From positions 1 to 44,305 of the forward strand of contig JAGYMO010000341.1 in the NCBI GenBank assembly GCA_018400255.1: 44,305 nucleotides of DNA, in the 5' to 3' direction. The stretch is from Deltaproteobacteria bacterium. GTDB taxonomy: Bacteria > Desulfobacterota > DSM-4660 > Desulfatiglandales > B25-G16. Below the pieces are notes generated by a model, which made no database searches, had not been told where the DNA came from, and saw nothing but the letters and a program-made list of their open reading frames with translations. The translations under genes were made by a program, and so were the position numbers. This document shows positions 4,530 through 36,889 of the stretch, in pieces; positions within the stretch are counted from its first letter, which is position 1, and the number at the start of each line of letters is the position of its first letter.

Positions 4530-5168
4530 ATGTTCAATGGAGTAAAAATAAACAAGCATAACCCTCTTTTATTGGCATCTTCCTCCCCAAGACGTAAATC
4601 AATACTCAGACAGATAGGTATTCCGTTTGTAGCAATGAAAAGTAGGTTCAAGGAGCCCATTTATGAAAATTTATCACCCGAGGAAGGAGCTTGTAAGGCG
4701 GCACTTAATAAGTCCAGGGCAGTGCATGAAATTAGAAAAAAGCAATGGGTACTTGGCGCAGACACCATAGTAGTGCTAAATAATGTAATATCCGGAAAGC
4801 CAAAAGATCCAGGGGACTGTCGTAATACACTTAACATGTTACAAGGAAAAGCCCACAATACAATAACTGGCTTTTGCATACTTGATTATAGGGGCGAGAT
4901 AGCACATTTAGAATCAGTTGTAACAAAAGTTAAAATCAAAAAATTAATGGGCGATGAAATAGAGAATTATATAAAAACAGGCGAACCGTTTGGCAAGGCT
5001 GGAAGCTATGCTATACAGGGCATTGGCTCCTTTATGATAGAATACATAAACGGTTCTTACACAAATGTTGTTGGCCTACCCGTCTTTGAAGTTATAAACG
5101 CCCTTGTTAAATGTAGGGCAATTGATGGCTTCCCCTTGATGGAAGATGAAATCAACTACTATCCCTAA
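4530..5168 (+). CDS. maf: Maf-family nucleoside triphosphate pyrophosphatase
   Basis: Contains 'LLLASSSPRRKSIL' and 'GKAGSYAIQG'. The last 5 codons plus stop lie inside repeat copy A. Confidence 0.88.
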   Translation: MFNGVKINKHNPLLLASSSPRRKSILRQIGIPFVAMKSRFKEPIYENLSPEEGACKAALNKSRAVHEIRKKQWVLGADTIVVLNNVISGKPKDPGDCRNTLNMLQGKAHNTITGFCILDYRGEIAHLESVVTKVKIKKLMGDEIENYIKTGEPFGKAGSYAIQGIGSFMIEYINGSYTNVVGLPVFEVINALVKCRAIDGFPLMEDEINYYP

Positions 5169-36022: not shown

Positions 36023-36105
36023 GCAACAATTAATCGTTGCTTTTGTGGGATACATAATCAGGCTAAAAATTCAGCTTGTAAAAAGACAGTATAAAGGAAT
36101 TTTTT

Positions 36106-36840
36106 GTGAACAAAAAAATAAACAATCTCCTTGTATCTCTCATTTGTTTAATAACAGCTCCCTTTTCTTCTCATGTAGAAGCAGAGATATTGGATCATAA
36201 TATAAAAAACATTGCAGATGGCTTTTTTTTGACTGCTACGTTTTCTTTGGGCTGATTTTGGGGACCTGATTCCCGGTTCGGGGCTATCGATGGTGTTATC
36301 AGGACACGAGTGGGATATACAGGGGGAGATAAAAAGAACCCTACGTATTACAACTTAGGTGATCACTCTGAGGCTCTGCAAATTGATTATAATCCGACTA
36401 AAATTTCTTATGAAAGATTGCTGACTATTTTTTGGAAAACCCATGACCCTGGCATAAGACCAATGTCAAGGCAATATTGGCCTGCAATTTTTTATCATAA
36501 TGAGGAGCAAGAAAGGCTGGCCTTTAAAGCAAAAAAATTTGAAGAGATTAAAGCAAAAGGGGAAATTTATACTAAAATATTTCCTTTAACTAGATTTTAC
36601 TTAGCGGAAAACTATCACCAAAAATATATGGTCAGGCATCATACCGAAATTATTGAGCAACTTGAAGCAATATACCCTTCTGCCGAAGAATTTATAAATT
36701 CAACACTTGTAGCCCGCATAAATGCCTATCTCGGCGGCTTCATGGCGCTTGAAGAGCTTCAATCACAGATACGTATTTATGGCCTTTCAAAACAAAGAAC
36801 AGAGAATTTGCTTCGCGCCATAAGCAAGGCCAAAAAATGA
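36106..36840 (+). CDS. msrA: Peptide-methionine (S)-S-oxide reductase MsrA, candidate selenoprotein (TGA 36253-36255 read as Sec), with predicted signal peptide
   Basis: The computed ORF (36310-36840) starts at 'VGYTGG', downstream of the active site. The same frame upstream reads 'ATFSLG-TGA-FWGPDSRFGAIDGVIRTR', so TGA replaces the Cys of the MsrA 'GCFWG' motif. The frame stays open back to GTG 36106, 6 nt after 'aaaggaa', giving 'NKKINNLLVSLICLITAPFSSHVEA'. Confidence 0.65.
36265..36303 (+). promoter_or_regulatory. Candidate bacterial SECIS-like stem-loop downstream of the in-frame UGA
   Basis: Outer stem cctgat (36265-36270) / atcagg (36298-36303). Inner hairpin (u)cccg-guu-cggg(g) at 36271-36283, with its apical GUU loop about 20 nt after the UGA. 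Confidence 0.35.
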
Positions 36841-36851
36841 GCTATATTTAA

Positions 36852-36889
36852 CCCAGATTATGCAGCGGATGGCTACTGCATAATCTGGG
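36852..36889. repeat. Palindromic hairpin element, family 3, copy 1 (downstream of msrA)
   Basis: Perfect 14-bp stem cccagattatgcag/ctgcataatctggg with a 10-nt loop. Shares the 'ttatgcag...ctgcataatct' core with 40049-40088. No T-run follows. Confidence 0.8.

Follow-up and report, generated by a model that had tools for sequence, protein, structure and literature searches.

The window (the whole stretch of DNA analysed here, 44,305 nucleotides) spans positions 1 to 44,305 of contig JAGYMO010000341.1, from the Deltaproteobacteria bacterium assembly GCA_018400255.1, and carries on its plus strand a gene, msrA, for a methionine sulfoxide reductase whose reading frame runs through an in-frame TGA (Table 1). 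We find that its product is very probably a selenoprotein of the type represented by CoMsrA, the selenoprotein MsrA of Clostridium (Alkaliphilus) oremlandii OhILAs (PDB 4LWJ-4LWM, 4U66 and 4W8C; Pfam families PF01625 plus PF20939), and that it begins with a predicted signal peptide. By itself the gene belongs to a known family and is ordinary within it; what makes it interesting is the predicted location of the enzyme and a missing partner.

Table 1. Features of msrA, with positions counted from the first letter of the window
Feature	Position	Strand	Remarks
Shine-Dalgarno-like 'aaaggaa'	36093..36099	+	AGGA core 36095-36098, 7 nt before the start; read from the sequence
Complete msrA gene	36106..36840	+	244 codons, selenocysteine at codon 50, terminal TGA stop; translated with TGA=U
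Predicted Sec-type signal peptide	36106..36183	+	Residues 1-26; n-region, h-region and c-region from sequence features
Linker	36184..36231	+	Residues 27-42 (EILDHNIKNIADGFFL); aligned with the family 'IPPID...' segment; low model confidence
TTG, codon 29, in frame	36190..36192	+	Only plausible internal start for a cytoplasmic form; no good Shine-Dalgarno sequence upstream
MsrA catalytic domain	36232..36648	+	Residues 43-181; Pfam, gap-free alignment to 4LWJ with offset 34
TGA read as selenocysteine U50 in GUFWG	36253..36255	+	Homologous to Cys16/Sec16 of CoMsrA
Hairpin like a selenocysteine insertion sequence (SECIS), GAUUCCC-GGUUC-GGGGCUA	36268..36286	+	Begins 13 nt after the last UGA base; mini-hairpin of -5.3 kcal/mol
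GTG	36310..36312	+	Gene callers' start of a truncated 176-residue product; not the real start
C-terminal five-helix domain ('atypical tail')	36643..36837	+	Residues ~180-244, after ENYHQKYM

Reading frame and selenocysteine decoding

Because the frame opens only at 36082, after a TAA at 36079, the GTG at 36106 is its first possible start, and six T separate it from the 'aaaggaa' upstream. The original prediction of an extended open reading frame (ORF) with this start and this upstream element holds in all its sequence statements. Translated with TGA as selenocysteine (U), the N terminus reads (M)NKKINNLLVSLICLITAPFSSHVEA|EILD..., codon 50 lies inside the motif GUFWG, and the frame ends at a second TGA at 36838. 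The sole Cys codon of the 244-residue product is Cys14, within the hydrophobic core of the leader, so no resolving Cys is possible after residue 26; Cys14 and Sec50 are the only Cys or selenocysteine positions, and the mature part is free of Cys, as had been claimed.

Several lines of sequence evidence indicate that the TGA-spanning ORF is a real gene. The Pfam PMSR match (7.5e-40) covers residues 43-181 and so crosses the TGA at 36253, which means that the 49 codons upstream of the TGA belong to the gene and are not open by chance. A relative with 95% identity, represented by four independent assemblies, keeps the start, the leader, the TGA and the downstream hairpin in all of them. Gene callers cut msrA at the TGA, and the resulting database entries of 176-184 residues are truncations without the catalytic motif; with both the catalytic residue and the leader missing from them, a whole group of apparently exported selenoenzymes is hidden from view.

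The assembly (2.54 Mb, 393 contigs, 40% GC, 89.6% complete) holds the machinery for selenocysteine decoding, with selB (382 bits), selA (605 bits) and tRNA-Sec (70 bits) all over their cut-offs. There are two copies of selD, also over the cut-off (C283:18314-19234 and C158:5881-6792), with one in-frame TGA each, and both SelD proteins of this genome are probably selenoproteins themselves.

A scan of one genome per species with the family alignment gave 80 loci. After addition of metagenome loci and the window, the catalytic codon was readable in 77 loci, and it is TGA in 66, TGT or TGC in ten and TGG in one. Once four near-identical relatives had been set aside, 73 loci remained, with 62 distinct selenocysteine-type sequences. 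These 62 share a hairpin 3' of the UGA, in which alignment columns 16-22 pair with columns 28-34 around a GGUUC loop; both partners of pair 18-32 are changed in 17 sequences and those of pair 19-31 in 19, and the covariation score is 0.238 versus 0.107 in shuffles (reached by 0 of 500), with its peak at the unshifted register. The hairpin in the window forms five of the seven family pairs (three G-C, one U-G and one A-U), which is the commonest count in the family, and Cys-type homologues mostly form one to three. An Rfam scan of the window gave no match.

The annotation of this gene by gene callers implies that the TGA at 36253 is a true stop, leaving either a decayed msrA or only the 176-residue product from GTG 36310, and one homologue (L028) has lost the TGA and carries TGG instead. 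We regard this as very improbable indeed: neither the catalytic motif nor the first strand is present in the truncated product, the PMSR match spans the TGA, TGA occupies the same codon in the 62 distinct homologous sequences and is followed by a covarying hairpin, the genome has the full selenocysteine machinery, and the family is experimentally proven to contain a selenoprotein (PMC4333827, PMC4479559). Selenocysteine decoding of the TGA is well supported by these comparisons, and we infer actual insertion from them; UGA50 would be recoded by SelB at the GGUUC hairpin.

Homologues listed with the motif GWFWG were considered as true Trp variants, a candidate we rejected: four of the five checked are TGA codons translated as W by the gene caller. 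The homologue on a JGI metagenome contig (L028:7396-8175) is leader-bearing (lipobox LTSC) and has a real TGG at the catalytic codon together with a perfect SECIS-type hairpin (seven of seven pairs). This looks like a recent TGA-to-TGG change, which should inactivate the enzyme, or it could be a sequencing error.

Read-through of the terminal TGA at 36838 was also considered, since 46 further open codons with two Cys and a 14-bp hairpin follow it, and was rejected: in the 95%-identical relatives all similarity is lost from 28 nt past the stop, and their frame closes after 19 codons. The 14-bp hairpin is perfect (-25.9 kcal/mol) and lies at 36852-36889, just past the msrA stop. As the relatives share just those 28 nt with the window and are unrelated to it beyond them, the hairpin is a strain-specific insertion or replacement and not a conserved terminator. 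We found no T-tract terminator after msrA, and the promoter and terminator scan of the plus strand returned nothing.

Family membership and the C-terminal domain

Profile searches place the product firmly in the MsrA family. PF01625 (PMSR) scores 137.1 bits against a cut-off of 23.7 and TIGR00401 scores 122.4 bits against 108.1, and an assembly-wide search found no other PMSR match in the genome. The catalytic residues are conserved (U50, F51, W52, Y81, Y82, E89, R122-Q123-Y124, H171 and Y174): GUFWG occupies residues 49-53, E89, Y81 and Y82 align with E55, Y47 and Y48 of CoMsrA, and R122-Q123-Y124, H171 and Y174 align with its R88-Q89-Y90, H137 and Y140, all residues with described catalytic roles in that enzyme (PMC4479559).

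The match to CoMsrA continues past the catalytic domain. In a phmmer search against PDB sequences, residues 43-241 align gap-free to residues 9-207 of 4LWJ and 4U66 (E 1.7e-56). In an AlphaFold model based on 50 homologues, the predicted local distance difference test score (pLDDT) is 88.8 overall, with about 50 over residues 1-40 and more than 95 over the remainder; Foldseek superposes the model on 4LWJ and 4LWL with a template modelling (TM) score of 0.96 and a root-mean-square deviation of 1.4 Å over all 205 target residues, and ordinary MsrA structures superpose on its catalytic half only. The profile alignment and structure prediction that the original prediction had proposed thus assign residues 43-181 to PF01625 and fold the tail into five helices as in 4LWJ (residues 180-189, 193-197, 200-209, 215-225 and 229-243; pLDDT above 88). 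The tail also contains the motif IYP...F(I/V)NST.A.R.N.Y..G....L.......GLS of the family alignment. The profile of the helical domain, PF20939 ('Selenoprotein MsrA, helical domain'), matches weakly (E 0.055) and is annotated in many homologues. In some family members the far C terminus carries an additional Cys (C[AS][IT]P), and the window protein stops before that position; a Pfam scan found no thioredoxin domain in the product.

CoMsrA has 209 residues with one selenocysteine and no Cys (the '1-Cys type'), and its C-terminal five-helix domain, which is missing from other MsrA structures, is essential for the active site (PMC4333827, PMC4479559). Two supposed anomalies of the window protein are therefore nothing of the kind: the missing resolving Cys is a defining published trait of the C. 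oremlandii 1-Cys selenoprotein MsrA family (PDB 4LWJ; PMC4333827), and the tail of about 65 residues is its known helical domain (PF20939; PMC4333827). We conclude with high confidence that the window protein is a CoMsrA-type selenoprotein MsrA, in which Sec50 would be the single redox residue, with no resolving Cys, and the obligatory C-terminal helical domain would hold the active site together.

Fusions with MsrB also occur in the family. A locus from an Anaerolineales metagenome-assembled genome (L044) encodes MsrB followed by MsrA, with a leader, and five further proteins of about 400 residues (P0033, P0045, P0081, P0086 and P0111) consist of the MsrA-plus-helical-domain part followed by MsrB.

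The leader peptide and predicted export

Residues 1-26 have all the textbook marks of a Sec-type signal peptide, in agreement with the basic n-region, hydrophobic core and VEA-type site first recognized there. The n-region, MNKKINN, is positively charged (+2); the uncharged core, LLVSLICLITA, has 11 residues, within the usual range of 7-15, and a mean Kyte-Doolittle value of 2.84; and the c-region, PFSSHVEA, has small residues at the key positions, with V24 at -3, E25, A26 at -1, Glu27 next and Pro19 at -7. An acidic segment after the hydrophobic core fits an N-in, C-out orientation, and in the model residues 1-40 show no packing on the fold. A simple test of the n- and h-regions is passed by this leader and by 8.5% of the genome's ORFs of at least 200 residues. 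The window also encodes MltA, and a periplasm is therefore expected in the host.

Leaders are widespread among the homologues, and this comparison is a stronger argument for export than the sequence features of the leader. By a plain hydropathy criterion, 41 of the 62 selenocysteine-type loci have a hydrophobic N-terminal extension, and three hydropathy-negative loci are also leader-like: L055 has a twin-arginine translocation (Tat) motif (TRRAFL), L037 a Tat motif (NRRSFMK) plus a lipobox-like Cys, and L093 a lipobox. Clear lipoboxes (for example, LAGC, LVGC, IAAC and IAGC) are found in at least 12 selenocysteine-type homologues. A maximum-likelihood phylogeny groups the window protein with five other deltaproteobacterial sequences (clade support 96/93). 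All six bear leaders, as do all eight Thermodesulfobacteriota sequences of a second clade, which includes the cultured Desulfosarcina alkanivorans PL12. Cys-type members are leaderless in eight of ten cases, and the trend linking selenocysteine with export has a Fisher p of ~0.003, uncorrected for phylogeny and for the search bias that comes from an exported selenocysteine-type query.

The host lineage offers a second comparison. The usual Msr in the genus, family and order is an MsrAB fusion of about 370 residues with the motif GCFWC and a signal or lipoprotein leader, so an exported Msr is normal in this lineage. The premise that canonical MsrA is cytoplasmic is too simple here, given that these MsrAB proteins and most selenocysteine-type homologues bear leaders.

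These sequence features make it likely that the window MsrA is targeted outside the cytoplasm, and they tip the balance slightly towards a soluble enzyme cleaved after A26. The best explanation overall, which we hold with reasonable confidence, is a CoMsrA-type selenoprotein MsrA with a 26-residue Sec-type signal peptide that is exported and repairs envelope proteins. The precursor would cross the inner membrane via the Sec translocon and be cut after VEA26, and the mature enzyme of about 218 residues would repair Met-S-sulfoxide in periplasmic and envelope proteins of this diderm Thermodesulfobacteriota host.

The same protein in the same orientation might instead retain its leader, either as a signal anchor or with a lipidated Cys14, and so stay attached to the inner membrane on its outer side. 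Close members of its clade give this idea some substance, as L034 has LLTSC and L033 and L054 have long helices that look uncleaved, and so do the orthologues from G015, G017 and G020, in which a Cys follows the core (LSIC, LFFC and LYAC) at the position equivalent to SLIC in the window protein. However, Cys14 makes a poor lipobox, being preceded by Ile at -1 and by a hydrophobic stretch of no more than six or seven residues; it lies nearer the N terminus than is usual in lipoproteins, and downstream of the 11-residue core there is a good V-E-A|E site, with Pro at -7. We consider tethering improbable and keep the lipoprotein reading of Cys14 as a minor rival only.

Translation could also begin at TTG 36190, alone or besides GTG 36106. 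The enzyme would then be cytoplasmic and CoMsrA-like, with glutaredoxin or thioredoxin to recycle it. Such a form would look like the short homologues of the cytoplasm, which have their catalytic residue at position 22-33, and would suit a genome in which we found no other Msr for the cytoplasm and no DsbD/CcdA match. Yet the TTG has no convincing Shine-Dalgarno sequence, whereas AGGA stands 7 nt before GTG 36106; the 95%-identical relative keeps the leader, and six of six clade members have one; and the MsrAB of the same genus is leader-bearing even though the genus has no DsbD. A start at the TTG is thus distinctly doubtful, more so than a tethered enzyme.

Some observations weigh against an exported CoMsrA-type enzyme. 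The msrA gene is the only Msr gene that we found in the 89.6% complete assembly, with no MsrB and no second MsrA, and a purely periplasmic enzyme would leave the cytoplasm without an Msr. The lipobox-like position of Cys14 leaves the type of leader uncertain, and PF20939 alone reaches 13.7 bits, under its cut-off of 23.7. The window hairpin forms only five of seven pairs, and shuffled versions of the 68 nt past the UGA fold at least as well as the original (z +1.1), so the case for a SECIS element rests on covariation across the family. Finally, the genus has no match to the DsbD/CcdA membrane domain, which leaves an exported enzyme without an obvious electron source.

In the searchable literature, with the original 2009 and 2011 papers outside its scope, we found no mention of export signals on selenoprotein MsrA; a search combining MsrA, selenocysteine, periplasmic and DsbD returned nothing, and a 2026 review of the prokaryotic selenoproteome describes GUFWG/H MsrA and leaves signal peptides and the periplasm unmentioned. 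What is new here is the export signal on a selenoprotein MsrA; selenoprotein MsrA as such, exported Msr enzymes and periplasmic selenoproteins with cleaved leaders are already known. If export is real, envelope methionine-sulfoxide repair in many strict anaerobes would be done by a one-selenium enzyme.

The same genome has a second leader-bearing candidate. On contig C159 (minus strand, reverse-strand offset 322), an ORF of about 343 codons encodes a DUF1573 protein with an in-frame TGA in 'KPDUGCS' that matches the NCBIfam family OS_HP2 (NF041425) with 112.6 bits against a cut-off of 100, and is a probable second exported selenoprotein of this genome. On the plus strand of contig C58, from position 5023 onward, an ORF with a signal peptide and one CxxCH has a TGA at codon 66 ('SEGEGUGG'), past which the frame continues into a multihaem cytochrome c of about 380 residues; this TGA may be a gene boundary or a selenocysteine codon, and its position is unlike that of Sec325 in Geobacter MccSep.

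Reductant supply, genomic context and known systems

The original prediction saw no DsbD/CcdA-like partner for an exported enzyme, and its absence from the neighbourhood (ten ORFs scanned) extends to the whole assembly, where the DsbD/CcdA membrane domain (PF02683) has 0 matches. The same is true of the other four genomes of the genus and of one genome of a neighbouring genus (G005), whereas the domain is present in 31 of the 41 genomes searched and, by our count from the table, in 30 of the 35 outside the genus and G005. Among 42 other hosts of leader-bearing selenoprotein MsrA, 36 have PF02683, which makes CcdA/DsbD the likely general electron source and this genus an exception. An association of the domain with exported forms was considered and rejected, as it is also present in six of the eight hosts of leaderless forms that serve as cytoplasmic controls.

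Each catalytic cycle would leave a selenenic acid, or an intermolecular diselenide of the kind seen in CoMsrA, to be reduced by an outside thiol donor, and in most hosts of the exported enzyme this donor is probably a thioredoxin-like protein fed by CcdA/DsbD. CoMsrA itself is recycled by glutaredoxin and not by thioredoxin, partly via an intermolecular bond that joins two catalytic residues (PMC4333827, PMC4479559). With the only studied relative both cytoplasmic and glutaredoxin-dependent, the question of an extracytoplasmic reductant becomes concrete and testable, and a leader-bearing Msr in a genus without any DsbD/CcdA match sharpens it.

A crude genome screen for leader-bearing CxxC or selenocysteine proteins returned a lipoprotein with a DsbD-gamma/DsbH-like thioredoxin domain, encoded outside the window (C332:6905-7492). 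Directly after it comes a 277-residue NapH-like membrane protein with two Fer4_5 motifs (C332:7633-8466). Two of the genus's four other genomes have the same pair, with 86-92% identity, and the best matches of the thioredoxin lipoprotein in other genera are the C-terminal domains of full-length DsbD proteins; on these two grounds we infer that the pair is a candidate DsbD substitute.

A wider proposition, which we put forward tentatively and think unlikely to hold as a whole, is that exported forms, whether with Sec-type, lipoprotein or Tat leaders, are the predominant and undescribed CoMsrA-type form in anaerobes, and that this is linked in the present genus to a new reductant route. Selenium might be favoured in such enzymes because a selenenic acid can be recycled outside the cytoplasm. 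The new route may consist of the thioredoxin lipoprotein and the NapH-like 4Fe-4S membrane protein (C332:6905-8466) or of direct reduction by sulfide or small thiols.

The genes around msrA point to no partner. The ten neighbouring ORFs scanned encode FabF, FabG, YceD, NUDIX, Memo, major facilitator superfamily and metallo-beta-lactamase-fold proteins, a threonine aldolase, MltA and a carboxyltransferase, with no redox partner among them; GlyQ and GlyS were recognized by sequence only. Across the 73 homologous loci, MsrB is the only recurrent neighbour (13 loci), and a conserved redox neighbour was rejected, as neither CcdA nor a thioredoxin recurs.

Selenoprotein MsrA is patchily distributed. 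Leader-bearing orthologues with 52-53% identity occur in four genomes from other genera of the family (G012, G015, G017 and G020); the search returned none from the other four genomes of the window's genus, one of which has different genes in the region upstream of glyQ. Genomes of this genus have either MsrAB (G001, G003 and G004) or selenoprotein MsrA (the window's own genome), never both. In another genus of the family (G012:C3:94897-96823), a selenoprotein MsrA and a Cys-type MsrAB, both with leaders, are encoded on one strand with about 1 kb between them.

Among known systems, CoMsrA is the closest to the window protein. The two share 42-44% identity across the whole mature window protein, the same catalytic residues, selenocysteine at GUFWG with no other Cys, and the same five-helix domain. 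They differ in that CoMsrA is leaderless, has its selenocysteine at position 16 and is a cytoplasmic enzyme that works with a clostridial glutaredoxin (PMC4333827, PMC4479559), whereas the window protein has 34 extra N-terminal residues, which make up the predicted signal peptide and the linker. The description of the CoMsrA type as a cytoplasmic enzyme recycled by glutaredoxin therefore probably does not extend to the window protein, since it bears a predicted signal peptide.

Periplasmic selenoproteins with Sec-type leaders provide a second comparison. For MccSep of Geobacter sulfurreducens, cleavage of the signal peptide at residue 25/26 and residence in the periplasm were shown experimentally (PMC13510729). 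MccSep, the OS_HP2 family and SaoB resemble the window protein in leader and in its predicted location, but their folds and chemistry are unrelated to it (a multihaem polysulfide reductase, a DUF1573 protein and an ABC-transporter binding protein, respectively), and none is an Msr.

Extracytoplasmic repair by an enzyme of the MsrA fold is likewise predicted for Neisseria PilB (Trx-MsrA-MsrB) and for the leader-bearing MsrAB fusions of relatives, and the MsrA domain of PilB is a structural match to our model (Foldseek TM score 0.54-0.55). Those proteins use Cys (GCFWC in the relatives here) and are fused to MsrB, and PilB is also fused to a thioredoxin domain; the window protein, in contrast, stands alone, with one selenocysteine and a helical domain, in a genome without a match to the DsbD membrane domain. 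PilB takes its electrons from DsbD. MsrPQ, finally, combines a periplasmic molybdoenzyme that reduces methionine sulfoxide with a quinol-linked membrane protein; it has the same proposed job as the window protein, repair of methionine sulfoxide in the periplasm, but belongs to a different enzyme family, uses a different electron route and has no homology to it.

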